Assembly: GCA_041615815.1 (NCBI GenBank)
Contig: JBFJCP010000020.1
Location: 28,270 to 92,269, forward strand
From: Gemmatimonadales bacterium
GTDB taxonomy: Bacteria; Gemmatimonadota; Gemmatimonadetes; Gemmatimonadales; GWC2-71-9
DNA length: 64,000 bases
Direction: 5' to 3'
Position numbers: made by a program. This document shows, one piece after another, positions 47,701-62,700 of this stretch (its first letter is position 1; each line of letters starts with the position of its first letter).

Positions 47701-50700
47701 CCTCCCGCCGGTGGGGGTGGCCCCCCTGGCGCATGGCGCCACCGCGGGACCGCTCGTCACTCGGGGTGGGATCGTCTTCCTCGGAGGGGGCTCTTCGGCA
47801 CTCCACGCCATCGACGCCGGGACGGGCGCGACCCTGTGGACCGGGGACCTCGGCGGTCCCCAGGGACGGGGCAATCCCATGACGTATCGGACCTCGGGGG
47901 GACGGCAATACGTCGTCATCGCCGCATCCAACGGGGATGGGACAGGCGCGAGGCTCGTGGCTTTCGCCGTTCCCTAGCGCACGTCGGTGGGGGCCGACCG
48001 CTAGCTTCCCAGACTCCGCACGTATTCTTCGACGCCCTGGATCATCGCGTCCAACGCGGCCCGATCGTGCACGCGCCCCTGCATGATGATGGCACGGATG
48101 CTCTTGGTGTTGGCGATGTCCGCCACTGGATCCGCATCCAGCAACACGAGATCCGCCGCCTTGCCTTCGGCCACCGTTCCATACCGCTCCGTGAGATCCA
48201 GGAACTCCGCGGGGCGGATGGTGGCGGCGCGGAGCGCCTCCAGCGGCTCGAGTCCGGCGGTCACGAGGTGCTTCAGCTCGTCGTGCATGCTGAAGCCAGG
48301 GAAAACCATGGTGTCGAACGCATCGGTGCCGGCGAGGATTTTGACGCCAGCCCGATGCGCGAGCCCGGTGACGCGCAGCCCCAGCTCGAAGAACTGTCGG
48401 TAGAACTGGAGCAGCACCGCTGGGCCGTTGGCCGTATTGCTCAGGTCTCGATCCCAACCCCGTTGGCGGGCCGGCGGCACGTACTTGCGGCGCCGATCAG
48501 CCCGATATACAGGATCGGAGGCCTTGGCATCCATCTCCCGCGTGAGATGGGTCGGGACGAGATACATATCGTGTTCGACGAACGCCCTGAAGATCTCCGC
48601 ACAACGCTCTTCGTCGAAGCTCGAGACCACCGCGTCGCGGAATTCGGCAAACAGCGCCGCGGGAAAGTCCTCCGCTCGTCCACTCGCGTATTCCGCGAAC
48701 GCCGCGCGAAAGTCTTCGTAGCGTGGGTTGCAGGCGAGCCCGGGCCAGCGTGCGTGCTCAATGCTCCGCATCCCCGCCTCTGCAGCCTCGACCGGCGTCA
48801 CGGACCACGGGAGGTGGCCGGCCACCGGGATGCCCAGACGGTGCGCTTCCTCCATGAGAGGGAAGAACGCCTCTCGCGGCACGGTGTTGTACACCTTGAT
48901 GAGATCGACCCCACGACTCTTGAGATACGCTACGAGCGCGCGGGCTTCCTCCGCATCGTTGGGCCGGTAGAATCCCGGGTCGGTGGCCCGGGCTCGGCTC
49001 TGCCCGCGGATCCCCTCCACGAGTGGACTGGCAAGCGCCAGAATCCGAGGCCCGACGACCTCCCCGTGCTCGAGCTGCCGTTGCAGTGCCCCCATGTCCG
49101 TGATGGTCTTCCGACTCCCGCAGGGCTCCCAGCAGTCGCCGAGCATATCCCGCACCCCGGTAATGCCGTTGGCGAGCATGAGGGGCAGCATGACCCGCAC
49201 CTGCGACGCCGTGGCACGATTCAAATGGACGTGCATGTCCCACAGACCCGGAAGGAGAAACTTCCCGGTGCCGTCGAGGATGGTGGCATCCCCCGGGACG
49301 TGGACGCCACCGGAGGGGCCGACCGCCACGATCCGGTCGCCCGTGATCACCACCGATTGATTCGCAACGCGCGCGGTGCTGGCGGATCCGGCGCGGGTGT
49401 CGATGATGGTAACGTTGCGGATCGCGATGGTAGGGGCAGCGACTTGACCCAGCACCGAATTTGGAACGATGACGATGGCAGTGATCAGTGGAAGGGGTGG
49501 TCTCAGCATAGGTGTAAAGAGCATTACACGTACCGTGCCACGACAGCAAGTGATCGCGCTTCGGCAACCTCGCCGTAGACGAGGAGCGGGGAACCTGATT
49601 GGTCGGCGCGGACTCCGGAGATATTCCACCCGGAGTTGCGGGGACGGCGGGAAGCGTGTTTCAGATGGGCGTGGCGGACTTCCTGCCTCCTAGATATCCC
49701 AAACGACGTGGGCGGGACCGGTATGGTCCCGCCCACAGATGCCGCTGCGTGAGGAGCGGCGTCACCGCCGTAGGAGGGAGGGCGGTGGCGTCGCGCGGAT
49801 CGTTGGATCGTACCTCGCGCTTGGTGTGACCCCGTACTCATCTGCTACCGCATCAATGGACGCCGTGAGCAGCGCCTCCAGCAGAAACGGGTTGTGGACG
49901 CCGTTTCCGCTGCCCTTGTGCGCCGAGAAGTGGATGCCAAACGCCTCTCCGCTGCCAAACCACGGGCGGTCCTCGGTGAAGGCCAACATCGCATTCCACA
50001 ACGCGCCCTCCGCGACCGTGACAATGTCGTCGTCCACATTCAGTTCCGCGGTATCGCCCAAGGCCACCACCTGCGGCAGTACCCCGCCATCCGTAACGTC
50101 CATGATCGCATTGCCGTCCGTGTCGAACCAGAGATCGTCCAGGAGTCCTTCAATGCGGTTCACGGAAACGGTATAGACTGAGCGAGCTGCCGCCTCGCTA
50201 CCGTGGCACCCGGACGCGGTGCAGGCACGGAAATCTCGTTCTGCCACGGTGCAGGTCCCGGTCGTCGGCAGGCCCTCCGCGTCCAGGCAAGCCAGTGCCT
50301 CGAACAGGTGACCCACGCTCTCGAAGACGAAGTCCCCGCTCGCCGGGTCGGTGACCGTGAACATCGGCAGGTGGCACGTGGCGCAGAGCTTGGGATTCGC
50401 CTCTGACCCGTGCGTACCGATGATCCGTGCGGTGTCATACGCGAACCCCGGGGGAATCCAACCCACGTTCTCTCCCAAGACGAGCAGTCCTTGCGGTGCA
50501 TGGGGGCCGTGGGAGGATGGCGGAGTGCCACGCCGGGCGTGACACCGTACACAGAGGTGATCGCTCGACGCCACGTCGATCGGGGCACGTAGCTGCGCAT
50601 CGTTTGGCGAACCATGTGGATCGTGGCATACGGCACACGCGATCGGCTGAGGGGTTGCGCCATCTTTTTCGATGTAATTGGCCGCGTTGTCGAACTTCGT

Positions 50701-59700: not shown

Positions 59701-62700
59701 CTCGCCACACCCCCTGGTCAAGTCGATGCCCACCTCCAGGGGTGGCAATGGCTGAAAGGCATCCGGATTCGTGACGTGGTCCAAACCCGGGCCATGACAG
59801 CTCTCACATTGAACGTCCTGATAGCGCGGATCCCGCGTGGACGCCCACGCGACCTGCGACTCCACTACGACATTGCCGTTGGCGCCGACAGTGTGACACG
59901 GCTCGCACGTCTCTTGCGCAAGCCCACTCTCCTGTAGGGTGCTCCAGGCACTCGCGTGGCGCGTCTGCCGCCAATCGGCGGCCTTTCCCACATGGCAGTT
60001 GCCGCAGATTGGACGGCGCTCGGCCGTCCCCGTGGCGTAGCCGAGGAAGCCCTGAGCGGCAGCGGGTGGGTCCTCGAAGGAGCGGAGACTGGTGAACACC
60101 GCATCGTCGTTGATACAGGACAGCGCAGCCAGCCCGACCAGCCCGATCACTGCAGCGGGCGCTCGACCACGGCTTTTCATCATTGCGCGGCTCCGCGGTG
60201 GAGGACGTGGGCAGAGCGTGATCTCCGGATTCCGACCGCGACCCCAATCGCCTCTCCGGGAGTGAGCGACTCGTTGGCTGGGTGGCACTGGGCGTCGCCG
60301 TTCATTTAATCGACGACCAATCACGAAGCGACGCTAAAGCAAAGGTTAAGAGTGCTTCACGCCCGCTCGTGCACATCCCAGATGGCCGGTGCGGGAGCCA
60401 ACTGGTCTAGCTGCCACACGCCCATTCTCACAGAGAGCGGTCACGGTCTTCAACGAGGGGGGGAAACACGACGAGGGTGGGAGAGACGTGCCGTGCAGGG
60501 GCCTCCCGCAAGGCGGACTGAGGGATTGCCATTGCTAACGGCGGGGCAACTCTGGCCTGGCGCGGAGGCCGCTGGGCGTGACGGGCGGATGGGAGCCGGT
60601 GGGGCGGGCCGTCCGCCCCTCTGCTTACGAAGCTCTCCGCGTCCGACCGCTCGGCAGAGGACACTCACCGGGAGGATGGATCAGGATTTGATCCGTTGGA
60701 GCGTCCCGGCGGCGGATGAGCCGAATGCCATAGCGCTTGAGTCCTTCGCACAGCCTCGAGGCCTCATCCAGCGTACGGAGCTCGGGGTGCGCAAGCGAGA
60801 GCTCAACGGTGGCCCCGGCGGGGACCCGACGGTTGGCCACGAGATCGATGACCTCCCGGACCGAGCTCACAGCGACGCTTCGTTCACTCATGCTGCCTCC
60901 GCGGTGTCGGCGATCGACAGGAGATCGCGCAGAAGGTACTCGGCTTCGCGAGCTTCTCGTGCCATGGCCTTCAACAGCTGGGCCAGGTCTTGGGCGAACG
61001 CGAAGTGCTCCCATTCGAGGCTCTGCAGCAGACTGTCGTACAGATGGGCCTGCCGTCGAAACCACATCATATCGGTCGGGCTCAGGACCCGGGCGATGAC
61101 CTGCGGCTGGTTCCGCGGACTCCATTCCAGGATCCCGTTGAGGCGTGCGCTCAGGTGCCAATCGTACGGGATGCTCGAGCGGCTGAGGTCGTCGGCGAGC
61201 TGGCGGAGCCGAAAGGCGGTGTCCCTTCGCATCCCCTTGCCGTTCGCCGCATTGGTCTCGCATACTGCGTCACTACTCACCTGGTCGCTCCCTTCTTTTC
61301 GGCGCGCCACGGCATACCACGCAGGTTTCGCACCAACTGGTGAGGAGCGTAGGGGGACGGTCTGGATATCGGAAGAAGGACGGGGTGCAGCTCGCGCGGT
61401 CGCTATCCTCGTTCGCCGATCAGCCGCGCCAGGCGTTCCGGCACGCGCTGCCGGGCCATGAGGGCGAGAAACTCTTGGTCTTGCGAGAGCTTGGCTAACG
61501 CCGCGAGGCTGTCCAGATGCGCCCGGGCGCGCCCACTCGGTGACAGCACCAGGAACACCAGATGGATCGGCCGATCATCCGGCGTGGGCATCGTGACCCC
61601 CTCGACCACGCTCGCCACGAAGCAGAGGCTCCGCTCCAACCCTTCGCTGTAGCGGTGCGGGATCGCGATCCCGCTACCCATCGCCACTGACATGGTGCGA
61701 TGCCGCTCGAGAATACCCGCCGTCAACGCCTCGGCCGGCAGCGCCGGTTGGACGCGTTTTGCGCTCTGCATGAGCTCGTCCACCACCGCCTCGAACGACG
61801 GGACCGGGTCGGCGATCACGTCCACGTGGGCAATGAGGTCGGCGAGGCCCGGGATCCGACGGCGCAGGACCACCGCAAACTCACCCCTCGGCGCGTTGGG
61901 TTGGAGCGGGTCGGGAACGATCTCGGCCCGCCCACCGCGCACCCAGAACAACGGTTGGAAGTCCGGCCCAAAATGGCCTCGCTCGTCGGCATCACCGATC
62001 TCCACGAGATCCACGACCAACGCGTCCGTTGCCAGTCCGTGCGCCACTTCTTCCACGGACCCCGTCTGCGTCCATACCGCGGACCCGGGAGCAGGCCCGC
62101 CATCCTCGATGTCGGGTTCCTCTTCCAAACCGGACGTGTCCCAGTGAAAGCACTGCTCGGGCCCGAGCCCCGTCGACCGCTGGACACCCGAGACGAACTG
62201 CGGGCTCGGGGCGTGCACAAACAAGAGCGCCTGCGCATCTGCGAACCGCGGATCCACCAGGCCTTCGACATCCAGTGTCGCCTCATCGCTCGTCAGTTGG
62301 GCGACCGATACGCCCGCGCGCCGGAGTCCGCGAGCCAACTCTTCCGCGACCGCTGCATGGCCCATCAGGATCCACTTGCGCCGGTCGGTGCGCTCCAATC
62401 CCAGCAGCCGAGCCACCCACGGGGCCGAGAGCCCCTGCAGGGTCACCGTCGTCGCTATCACGGCGTAGGTGATGGTCTCCAAGTGCACGGCTTGCACGAA
62501 GCCGCGGTCCTCCAGCCGGATCGCAAACAGCGAGGCCATGGCGGCCGCGACGATCCCACGGGGACCAATCCACGCCAGGAACGACTTCTCCCGTAGCTCG
62601 AACCCCTCCCCCCACGTCGCCAGCCAAATTGCCGTCGGGCGCAAGAACAGGATCACGACGCCGAGCAGCACGAGGAGCTCCCACCCCACGAAGCGTGCCA

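Follow-up and report, generated by a model that had tools for sequence, protein, structure and literature searches.

Two related sets of multihaem cytochrome genes in a Gemmatimonadales contig probably each encode an envelope-spanning conduit that would connect the quinone pool through an outer-membrane barrel with the cell surface, outward flow of electrons being the likelier direction. The window (the whole 64,000-nt stretch of DNA that was analysed) begins at position 28,270 of contig JBFJCP010000020.1, which is position 1 in the coordinates used here, and the minus strand carries all genes of both sets. The features are as follows:

58771..60186, minus strand: nonahaem lipoprotein, set 2 gene 1, 8 CxxCH and 1 Cx4CH, OcwA/OmhA-like (haem sites, lipobox, profile)
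57843..58688, minus strand: lipobox-bearing cytochrome, set 2 gene 2, 9 CxxCH and 1 Cx4CH (motif counts, blastp)
56368..57846, minus strand: haem-free predicted outer-membrane beta-barrel, set 2 gene 3, 492 aa, 0 CxxCH (AF2, Foldseek, VIA-align)
54959..56371, minus strand: 16-haem cytochrome with Sec signal, set 2 gene 4, 16 CxxCH (motifs, synteny, complex prediction)
53655..54989, minus strand: 9-haem cytochrome with C-terminal transmembrane anchor, set 2 gene 5, 9 CxxCH (sequence, motif counts)
53162..53668, minus strand: Rieske iron-sulfur protein with N-terminal membrane anchor (PF00355, cluster motifs)
52678..53139, minus strand: small ORF, 153 aa, CxxC...CxxC and hydrophobic tail, doubtful member of the set (sequence)
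51513..52610, minus strand: cytochrome b, b6-type fused to a subunit IV-like C-terminus (PF00033, PF00032)
49762..51327, minus strand: second nonahaem lipoprotein paralogue, last gene of set 2, 8 CxxCH (44-46% identity to the other two copies)
32581..34089, minus strand: nonahaem lipoprotein, set 1 gene 1, 8 CxxCH (haem sites, alignment, blastp)
30460..32445, minus strand: membrane-anchored cytochrome, set 1 gene 2, 18 CxxCH and 2 Cx4CH, NrfH-like N-terminus (motifs, 2j7a_C match)
28955..30463, minus strand: paralogous haem-free barrel, set 1 gene 3, 0 CxxCH (blastp: 29% identical over 480 aa to its set 2 counterpart)
27501..28958, minus strand: paralogous 16-haem cytochrome, set 1 gene 4, 16 CxxCH (36% identity over 476 aa to its set 2 counterpart, blastp)

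Haem motifs in such numbers cannot be explained by chance. The CxxCH counts are exactly those of the initial annotation, and the paralogy of the two sets was likewise reproduced, with blastp identities of 46%, 43% and 44% between the three proteins annotated as 8-haem in addition to the values listed above. Both sets hold additional Cx4CH sites that are kept in orthologues or swapped for CxxCH there, so that the likely totals are nine haems for each '8-haem' protein, 10 for the 57843-58688 product and 20 for the '18-haem' protein. Altogether there are 45 haem sites in set 1 and 53 in set 2, the latter including two nonahaem copies.

The haem-free proteins had been taken for porins with their beta-barrel nature left open; they are now predicted to be outer-membrane barrels of a new family with 24 long strands. 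For the set 2 barrel, neither Pfam nor NCBIfam yields a match at E<=0.01, and its AF2 model (pLDDT 82.7) is all-beta, has 24 strands of at least 7 residues and finds structural matches (Foldseek, VIA-align) only among outer-membrane barrels with large lumens (Z of 18.8 for SusC/TonB-dependent barrels, 17.2 for PapC and 15.9 for MtrB). A search of the window's genome gives the set 1 barrel as the second match (E 5.4e-147). At its start codon region the set 2 barrel gene shares 4 nt with the stop of the upstream gene 57843-58688.

For the 16-haem cytochrome, an alignment of 34 sequences shows no variation at any of the 16 CxxCH or at 14 other His residues, and hardly any at 2 more; 16 CxxCH are found in 69 of 72 orthologue ORFs. 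Predicted as a complex with the barrel, this protein gave a score of 0.74 (best control 0.00); the three runs scored 0.67, 0.75 and 0.74, had at least 76% of contacts in common and a partner pLDDT of at least 73. Among solved complexes 116 of 157 attain this mark, among mismatched pairs 2 of 215, counts that apply only roughly here because we used our own alignments. Contacts involve alternate residues of nearly every barrel strand and residues 246-463 of the cytochrome, mostly 308-463, a pattern that fits a cytochrome inside the barrel lumen. As far as these models go, it is thus the 16-haem cytochrome, with its C-terminal third, that is predicted to sit in the barrel. The score could partly echo the predictor's knowledge of solved MtrAB, to which neither partner is detectably homologous. 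Both sets do look like the porin-cytochrome conduits that had been proposed.

The arrangement is widespread among relatives. Of the 401 Gemmatimonadota genomes in one sample, 181 carry the barrel. When the genome lists for barrel and nonahaem protein were compared by hand, 174 genomes had both, 7 lacked just the nonahaem protein, 2 lacked just the barrel and 218 had neither. The barrel gene is directly followed by the 16-haem gene in all 73 loci with room for it. Upstream of the barrel, in the 63 loci with room, we found the free lipoprotein cytochrome (35 loci), an NrfH-fused cytochrome (23), the nonahaem gene directly (3) or none of these (2). Since the genomes of relatives are not independent, the support is weaker than the counts for gene order and co-occurrence suggest; all 160 loci listed come from MAGs (no named isolates), and no RNA run contains the stretch. 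Gemmatimonadota are an abundant phylum of soils and sediments, and if our reading is true, nearly half of the sampled genomes would encode a respiratory wire to the cell surface that uses a new kind of barrel.

The initial annotation described the 8-haem proteins as MtrA-like. Nine haem sites are present in 54 of 56 orthologue ORFs and a lipobox-like motif in 52 of 56, the lipobox Cys being conserved in the alignment. A similarity to MtrA does exist (single sequence against chain 6r2q_A, E 1.8e-4), yet it is weak with the family profile (E 5.6e-3), which matches OmhA (6qvm, E 5.6e-19) and OcwA (6i5b, E 5e-13) far better; the MtrA-like label is therefore not supported. Foldseek also ranks OcwA and 6qvm first, the fold matches being weak evidence given the poor structure model (pLDDT 55.9). 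OcwA acts as a terminal reductase at the cell surface (PMC6703420), and the nonahaem lipoprotein is predicted to be a terminal oxidoreductase, whose surface position we infer, as we do the order of carriers, the direction of flow and the substrate. The nonahaem copy downstream of cytochrome b (49762-51327) occurs only in the window and in one other locus (L001) among 80 related loci.

A quinol-fed periplasmic system, in which the nonahaem lipoprotein reduces or oxidises some soluble compound of nitrogen or sulfur while the barrel is a mere substrate porin, appears very unlikely to us. The nonahaem family does fall within the NrfA/ONR/HAO/MccA superfamily: its profile weakly matches octahaem nitrite reductase and HAO, and in the Foldseek ranking OcwA and OmhA are followed by NrfA and octahaem nitrite reductases. 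The in vitro reduction of nitrite and related compounds by OcwA-family proteins makes a periplasmic enzyme role conceivable, nitrite or NO reductase activity being described for all tested members of the group (PMC9250108), and Rieske/b complexes tied to multihaem enzymes have been proposed elsewhere (PMC5317091). However, the two nearest relatives by a wide margin, OmhA and OcwA, are cell-surface metal reductases, all nine haem sites are of the His type (CxxCH or Cx4CH, no CxxCK), the 35 to 44 further haems per set are far above what a periplasmic enzyme needs, and a lumen filled by the 16-haem cytochrome, as predicted, would leave no open channel for a substrate.

For the conduit reading, the link to the quinone pool is the next element. 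In set 2 the Rieske and cytochrome b genes reported between the haem genes were confirmed, and the pair looks functional from its sequence: the Rieske protein matches PF00355 (45.3 bits, cut-off 20.3) and has the cluster motifs CTHLDC and CACH, and cytochrome b matches PF00033 (176.8 bits) and PF00032 (47.6 bits), contains HX13H and HX14H (the four haem-b His) as well as PEWY, and scores below cut-off on the NCBIfam models for cytochrome b6 (230.9 bits) and ExtP (208.6 bits). The anchored 9-haem cytochrome, which matches generic multihaem Pfam families and has 9 sites in 27 of 28 orthologue ORFs, accompanies both genes in related loci and presumably replaces cytochrome c1/f. By coordinates, 551 nt separate the Rieske gene from the cytochrome b gene in the window, versus 183 nt in L001; the small ORF in this extra DNA matched no Pfam or NCBIfam family above threshold, and tblastn found it in none of the 80 related loci.

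Only the second set had been considered wired to quinol, but set 1 appears to have its own link. At the N-terminus of its 20-site cytochrome (26 of 28 orthologue ORFs have 20 sites) are transmembrane helices and a module similar to NrfH that likewise looks functional (NrfH 2j7a_C, E 4.7e-9, residues 106-190; TIGR03153 37.2 bits, below the cut-off of 134.2). The 57843-58688 product of set 2 is, judged by blastp, homologous to the C-terminal part of this cytochrome (38% identity over 184 aa, residues 461-642, E 4e-28). Across relatives the two quinol modules are complementary and nearly mutually exclusive: Rieske/cytochrome b genes lie nearby in 21 of 26 free-lipoprotein loci (none within reach in the other 5) versus 1 of 16 NrfH-fusion loci, which suggests a shared role as quinol dehydrogenase.

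This bears on the direction of flow. The same conduit could run inward and supply the quinone pool with electrons from Fe(II) outside the cell, from a reduced mineral, from a cathode or from a partner cell, with the Rieske/b complex of set 2 reversed by the proton-motive force, as the bc1 complex of acidophilic iron oxidisers works in reverse mode. Known porin-cytochrome conduits run either way, MtoAB/PioAB-type clusters being treated as conduits of iron oxidisers (PMC5566968), iron reduction and oxidation in Gemmatimonadota are not separable from annotation (PMC11316326), and operon content fixes no direction. We nevertheless think inward flow rather unlikely. Quinol oxidation is the normal role of NrfH-type modules and Rieske/b complexes, and their near-exclusive use points to it as the common function; neither set encodes an oxidase or other downhill acceptor, and the genome's sole RuBisCO_large match is so weak (80.8 bits, 375-aa frame) that autotrophy is not indicated.

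In the outward mode, which we take to be more likely, quinol would be oxidised by the NrfH-like tetrahaem-type module in set 1 and in set 2 by a Rieske/cytochrome b6-type complex with the anchored 9-haem cytochrome in place of c1 or f. Electrons would pass through a periplasmic relay of about 10 haems, probably a free lipoprotein in set 2 and part of the quinol-module fusion in set 1, to the 16-haem cytochrome, nine haems of which may reach into the periplasm while its C-terminal part (roughly haem sites 10 to 16) would be sheathed by the 24-strand barrel. The nonahaem lipoprotein, most likely at the outer face of the barrel, would probably act as terminal oxidoreductase and reduce an extracellular acceptor, e.g. 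Mn(IV)/Fe(III) oxides or humic substances.

Parts of this design are known from other systems. Like NrfH/CymA/NapC-NirT proteins, the set 1 cytochrome has N-terminal transmembrane helices and an NrfH-like haem region, which is however fused to about 16 further haem sites. We know of no Rieske gene in the Geobacter ext cluster (extHIJKLMNOPQS), which resembles set 2 in having a b6-like cytochrome b directly beside an outer-membrane porin-cytochrome set. There, the porin-like ExtI and cytochromes adjoin the b-type cytochrome genes ExtP/ExtQ (PMC5877670); the ExtP score of our cytochrome b is under the cut-off of 290, and the barrel and cytochromes would belong to other families. OcwA (Thermincola potens, 6I5B) and OmhA (Carboxydothermus ferrireducens, 6QVM) share nine haem sites and a long-helix C-terminal module with the nonahaem protein; identity in the Foldseek alignment is about 18%. 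Distal His residues and two haem sites with penta-coordination define their group (PMC9250108), and both proteins are terminal reductases of Gram-positive cell surfaces, whereas our protein is a diderm lipoprotein encoded beside a barrel-cytochrome pair.

PCC3/PCC4 of iron oxidisers also combine a porin, multihaem cytochromes and an inner-membrane redox partner in one cluster, this partner being described as a five-helix dihaem-b protein instead of Rieske/cytochrome b (PMC5566968, He et al. 2017, whose main text contains neither 'Rieske' nor 'Gemmatimonad'). The claim that a quinol-to-surface wire would be new in Gemmatimonadota is weakened, since MtrCAB and FeGenie iron-gene matches from this phylum are in print (PMC8805035, PMC11316326) and table S3 of a 2026 karst-MAG paper lists porin-cytochrome clusters with petB/petC, two of them in a Gemmatimonadota MAG (PMC13264449). 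The idea is thus partly published. In section 18 of the latter paper, families are not analysed, structures are not predicted and the phylum is not surveyed as a whole.

As in MtrCAB, MtoAB and PioAB, a multihaem cytochrome is predicted in a large outer-membrane barrel with a haem lipoprotein partner, and the barrel model superposes on MtrB of Shewanella MtrCAB (6R2Q; Z 15.9, rmsd 4.8 A, 353 residues). In contrast to MtrCAB, our barrel has no MtrB_PioB Pfam match and superposes on TonB-dependent and usher barrels no worse than on MtrB, its cytochrome has 16 haems instead of 10 (MtrA profile match insignificant, E 0.067), the lipoprotein is OcwA-like rather than MtrC-like, and the operon itself codes for the quinol module. 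The proposed architecture resembles MtrAB, with both protein families differing from those of MtrAB.

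The window (65% G+C) holds two related gene sets, all on the minus strand: set 1, a cluster of four genes at 27501-34089, and set 2, a paralogous cluster at 49762-60186 that includes a Rieske protein and a cytochrome b.

Genes of set 2 and set 1 (window positions, strand, product and number of CxxCH motifs or other basis)
58771-60186, minus: nonahaem lipoprotein, set 2, 8 CxxCH
57843-58688, minus: lipobox cytochrome, set 2, 9 CxxCH
56368-57846, minus: haem-free barrel, set 2, 0 CxxCH
54959-56371, minus: 16-haem cytochrome, set 2, 16 CxxCH
53655-54989, minus: anchored 9-haem cytochrome, set 2, 9 CxxCH
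53162-53668, minus: Rieske protein, set 2, Pfam
51513-52610, minus: cytochrome b, set 2, Pfam, with b6/petB and petD-like parts
49762-51327, minus: second nonahaem lipoprotein, set 2, 8 CxxCH
32581-34089, minus: nonahaem lipoprotein, set 1, 8 CxxCH
30460-32445, minus: NrfH-fused cytochrome, set 1, 18 CxxCH
28955-30463, minus: haem-free barrel, set 1, 0 CxxCH
27501-28958, minus: 16-haem cytochrome, set 1, 16 CxxCH

Re-analysis confirmed that both sets are real: ORF translation reproduced every CxxCH count of the initial annotation, Pfam recognised the Rieske and cytochrome b genes of set 2, and the blastp identities between the paralogues (36%, 29%, 46% and 43%) match the earlier figures. From the first gene of set 2 to the Rieske gene, neighbouring genes overlap or lie at most 82 nt apart. 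The haem proteins of both sets fall into generic multihaem families only, according to Pfam, and NCBIfam agrees. The earlier reading of the sets as porin-cytochrome conduits was right in kind, but the roles of the individual proteins had to be reassigned.

Pfam and NCBIfam assigned neither haem-free protein to a family at E ≤ 0.01, and MtrB_PioB, the Pfam family of the MtrB/PioB outer-membrane barrels, is thus not matched either. More than 498 homologues were found, and all named ones belong to Gemmatimonadota. The AF2 model, built from a 29-sequence alignment, is all-beta (pLDDT 82.7) with 24 strands of at least 7 residues, and Foldseek matched it to outer-membrane barrels exclusively. In a structural search against representatives we observed SusC/TonB-dependent barrels at Z 18.8 to 18.0 and PapC/FimD ushers at Z about 17 (PapC 17.2); MtrB, at Z 15.9 (rmsd 4.8 Å, 353 aligned), ranks below the TonB-dependent barrels and PapC. 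In each of these matches the lumen holds a plug or polypeptide, and MtrB itself is a 26-strand barrel that houses a cytochrome. The barrel nature of the haem-free proteins, a gap in the initial annotation, is thus established at the level of prediction by the model, Foldseek and the structural search. Three long protein matches (P0260, P0240 and P0242), public gene calls in which the barrel is fused to the 16-haem protein encoded next to it, were rejected as 'Rosetta stone' evidence, since they appear to be read-through or frameshifted calls over two adjacent genes, with a retained signal peptide and garbled stretches.

Complex prediction was carried out with barrel residues 25-484 and residues 22-470 of the 16-haem cytochrome, each supplied as an alignment. 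The complex scored 0.67, 0.75 and 0.74 (median 0.74) compared to 0.00 for the best control, with a partner pLDDT of at least 73 and at least 76% of contacts common to the runs. Of 157 solved complexes 116 reach the mark for this score, as do 2 of 215 mismatched pairs, a calibration that is rough here because our own alignments were used; as MtrAB, a like complex, has already been solved, the score may also partly reflect model memory. Nearly all barrel strands take part in the predicted contacts with every second residue, as do loops that fold inwards, among them the invariant WTIWGAFSP; the cytochrome contributes residues 246-463, for the most part 308-463, where haem motifs 10 to 16 lie. Such contacts are what a cytochrome with its C-terminal third inside the lumen would give, and the model supports, though it does not demonstrate, binding of the two proteins. 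Detectable homology to MtrA or MtrB was found for neither protein. Invariant residues of the barrel are not clearly enriched in this interface, where a hand count placed 15 of 40 of them and 141 of 460 residues overall, and this line of evidence was rejected. Within the 16-haem family (34 sequences) all 16 CxxCH motifs are invariant, as are 14 further histidines, and two more are nearly so, a number that fits bis-His ligation of every haem.

The proteins initially labelled '8-haem MtrA-like' have a conserved ninth haem site, which is Cx4CH in the window and an ordinary CxxCH in some orthologues; nine sites are present in 54 of 56 complete orthologue ORFs (8+1 in 45 and 9+0 in 9). They also have a lipobox cysteine; 52 of the 56 ORFs show a lipobox-like motif, the one trait seen here that bears on a cell-surface location. 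The family profile matches 6qvm (OmhA, the S-layer undecahaem cytochrome of Carboxydothermus ferrireducens) at E 5.6e-19, 6i5b (OcwA) at E 5e-13 and 6r2q_A (MtrA) at E 5.6e-3. The AF2 model is poor (pLDDT 55.9), and its Foldseek matches, with OcwA and 6qvm ahead of NrfA-type nitrite reductases, were weighed only together with the sequence profile. Similarity in sequence and, from this weak model, in fold extends across both modules and, with the nine haem sites, supports a place for the proteins in the OcwA/OmhA clade. In an alignment, one histidine of the PHSPQ motif lies opposite the OcwA HH pair. OcwA is a cell-surface terminal reductase of Thermincola (PMC6703420), and OcwA and OmhA are described in PMC9250108 as a "cell-surface" pair inside the NrfA/ONR/HAO/MccA superfamily, with two penta-coordinated haems and conserved distal histidines as traits of the clade. 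With the MtrA/DmsE model TIGR03508 (cut-off 192.2) the anchored 9-haem cytochrome scored highest, at 53.6 bits, followed by a nonahaem paralogue at 48.6; the 16-haem protein of set 2 gave no match. MtrA/DmsE proteins have ten haems in about 300 aa, whereas the nonahaem proteins have nine sites in 470-520 aa. The MtrA-like label was wrong, the profile matches to OmhA and OcwA being far stronger than that to MtrA.

The two sets differ in how they would connect to the quinone pool. In the set 1 protein with 18 CxxCH, two additional Cx4CH sites bring the total to 20, a number present in 26 of 28 orthologue ORFs. Proteins of the NrfH and NapC-NirT family have an N-terminal membrane helix and, after it, a tetrahaem quinol-dehydrogenase fold. 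The set 1 protein starts with transmembrane helices, and an NrfH-like stretch of 85 residues matches 2j7a_C at E 4.7e-9; its scores with the models TIGR03153 (37.2 bits) and PF03264 (20.7 bits) both lie under cut-off. By blastp, its C-terminal part is related to the set 2 lipoprotein with 9+1 sites (38% over 184 aa, E 4e-28). The set 2 Rieske protein contains the cluster boxes CTHLDC and CACHNGH and exceeds the PF00355 cut-off, and the cytochrome b contains HX13H, HX14H and PEWY (PF00033 176.8 bits, PF00032 47.6 bits). In place of a monohaem cytochrome c1 or f, the adjacent gene encodes a cytochrome with 9 CxxCH and a C-terminal anchor; the third subunit of this Rieske/b complex would be a multihaem variant. 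Haem ci of b6f complexes is bound by a cysteine, and in a comparison by eye the set 2 cytochrome b does not have it. A second, divergent cytochrome b is encoded elsewhere in the same genome (G000:C15:10154-10666, plus strand, PF00033 64.6 bits, 537-aa frame), presumably as part of another quinol-oxidising complex; given this weaker match, the set 2 complex would be an additional one.

We then turn to conservation. A pattern scan of species-representative genomes, which can miss members, yielded 422 loci with a barrel relative, of which 80 were kept; these are all MAGs, 78 labelled as Gemmatimonadota or its orders or families and two as 'uncultured bacterium'. No cultured carrier is among the 160 loci listed in all, every one of them from a MAG, although with such a scan absence is not proved. 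Wherever there is room (73 of the 80 loci), the 16-haem gene follows directly downstream of the barrel gene. Upstream of the barrel (63 loci with room) we found a free lipoprotein cytochrome in 35 cases, an NrfH-fused cytochrome in 23, a nonahaem gene in 3 and nothing recognisable in 2. Both flanks have room in 46 loci; among these, genes for Rieske and cytochrome b are found nearby in 21 of 26 free-lipoprotein loci, like set 2, compared to 1 of 16 NrfH-fusion loci, like set 1. Three of the remaining four have a nonahaem gene immediately upstream and lack Rieske/b genes; the fourth has Rieske/b genes and nothing recognisable upstream. The counts point to two types of operon, set apart chiefly by their quinol module, and the genome studied here has one of each. 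In another Gemmatimonadales MAG (L065:4840-20994) both types lie back to back in a supercluster of ~16 kb, with the Rieske/b genes upstream, not downstream, of the barrel.

Of 401 Gemmatimonadota genomes sampled evenly, 181 (in 80 of 147 genera) carry the barrel and 176 the nonahaem family; a hand comparison of the lists gave 174 genomes with both, 7 with the barrel only, 2 with the nonahaem family only and 218 with neither, counts that are descriptive and carry no statistical test because of kinship between the genomes and incomplete MAGs. The core operon of nonahaem, relay-cytochrome, barrel and 16-haem genes is also found in one MAG each labelled Candidatus Krumholzibacteriota and Candidatus Eisenbacteria (L137 and L152), with barrels 36-41% identical to the Gemmatimonas sp. 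query barrel. A library-wide profile search returned 572 representatives at E ≤ 0.001. The stretch itself was found in 8 DNA sequencing runs from 3 studies and in no RNA run.

A 153-aa ORF (52678-53139, minus strand) lies in the interval that separates the Rieske gene from the cytochrome b gene. Its product has two pairs of CxxC and a tail that is hydrophobic; neither a family nor a match across the 80 related loci was found for it. The interval has roughly 370 extra bases in the window, that of the closest relative (L001) being only about 183 bases; the DNA alignment of the gap indicates extra DNA in the window and nothing beyond. Directly after the 16-haem gene of set 1, on the same strand, is a gene for a DUF411 protein (26963-27529, minus strand, E 4e-28), of a copper-binding family and thus a possible link to metals, and next comes a Na/Ca exchanger gene (25832-26917, minus strand). 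Past the last gene of set 2 are an amidohydrolase gene (48001-49629, minus strand) at 132 nt and, some 1.8 kb beyond the set, a gene for a PQQ-dependent dehydrogenase (45803-47977, plus strand, PF01011, E 1e-192), a periplasmic enzyme that would need a cytochrome acceptor.

Taken together, both sets are most economically read as a conduit that links quinol with the cell surface. Electrons would enter at an inner-membrane quinol module, in set 1 the NrfH-like start of the 20-site cytochrome and in set 2 the Rieske/b6 proteins with the anchored 9-haem cytochrome, pass through a periplasmic module of ~10 haems to the 16-haem rod, whose last seven haems would lie within the barrel, and reach the OcwA-like nonahaem lipoprotein. 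We infer the order of the carriers, the membrane side of the lipoprotein and the direction of flow. That the sets encode a periplasmic enzyme instead is less likely, in view of the predicted plugged barrel and of the 45 haem sites in set 1 and 53 in set 2. If the conduit is real, we lean towards outward flow, because quinol dehydrogenase is the classical role of both modules and the lipoprotein has reductases as its closest characterised relatives; flow inwards, by iron oxidation or cathodic uptake, is possible, and according to PMC11316326 direction is not deducible from annotation. Autotrophy was rejected as a hint of direction, the RuBisCO_large match being weak and the only one in the genome.

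Gemmatimonadota are among the commoner phyla of soils and sediments. A conduit working as proposed would therefore point to an overlooked role of the phylum in iron, manganese and humic redox cycling, and would add a new pair of barrel and cytochrome families to the few known electron routes across the outer membrane, a natural example of coupling between a Rieske/b complex and a multihaem wire, and OcwA-type reductases in a diderm setting, for which we know of no earlier case. A wider and rather doubtful proposal is that Gemmatimonadota and neighbouring candidate phyla have a lineage-specific extracellular respiration of their own, with a new barrel family round a 16-haem rod, an OcwA-type cap and an interchangeable quinone link, either an NrfH-type module that conserves no energy or a Rieske/b Q-cycle complex that does and is hard-wired to the conduit. 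A genome with both modules, as here, could then choose its pathway according to the redox potential of the mineral acceptor, and many supposedly aerobic Gemmatimonadota of soil and sediment would be facultative metal or humus respirers. As the scans and literature searched yielded no cultured carrier, the conduit reading rests wholly on prediction; a metal-respiring Gemmatimonadota isolate was likewise not found in that literature.

The conduit idea for this phylum is already partly in print, which lessens the weight of the finding; that weight comes from its spread in an abundant phylum. A 2026 study (PMC13264449) reports petB and petC inside porin-cytochrome clusters of four MAGs, one of which, SAW209, belongs to Gemmatimonadales and has two such clusters. 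Three MtrABC operons and widespread FeGenie matches to Cyc2 and DFE_461-465 are reported for marine Gemmatimonadota (PMC11316326), MtrCAB in one Gemmatimonas MAG was ascribed to horizontal transfer (PMC8805035), and the portion of PMC6295460 available counts CbcL and ImcH homologues and nothing further; the available portion of PMC7914226, on Krumholzibacteria from a bioreactor, does not mention the conduit system. In the literature outside subscription journals we found no description of the barrel family or its pairing with the 16-haem cytochrome, of an OcwA-type lipoprotein in a porin-cytochrome setting, or of the swap between NrfH and Rieske/b modules and its phylum-wide spread.

PCC3 and PCC4 of He et al. 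2017 have a five-helix inner-membrane protein with two HX13H motifs (PMC5566968), and at the level of annotation none is evident in set 1 or set 2; PCC4 was rejected as a precedent for Rieske/b coupling, its inner-membrane protein being of another kind, and neither Rieske nor Gemmatimonadota appears in the accessible main text of PMC5566968. Among named proteins, Geobacter ExtP is closest to the set 2 cytochrome b (208.6 bits, cut-off 290); it is encoded with the porin-like ExtI in the extHIJKLMNOPQS cluster (PMC5877670) and thus sets a precedent for a conduit encoded next to a b-type cytochrome complex. The working principle would be like that of MtrCAB, but the sequences fall outside the MtrA and MtrB families, and the two sets would represent porin-cytochrome conduits of a known kind with barrel and cytochrome families of their own and an OcwA-like lipoprotein.
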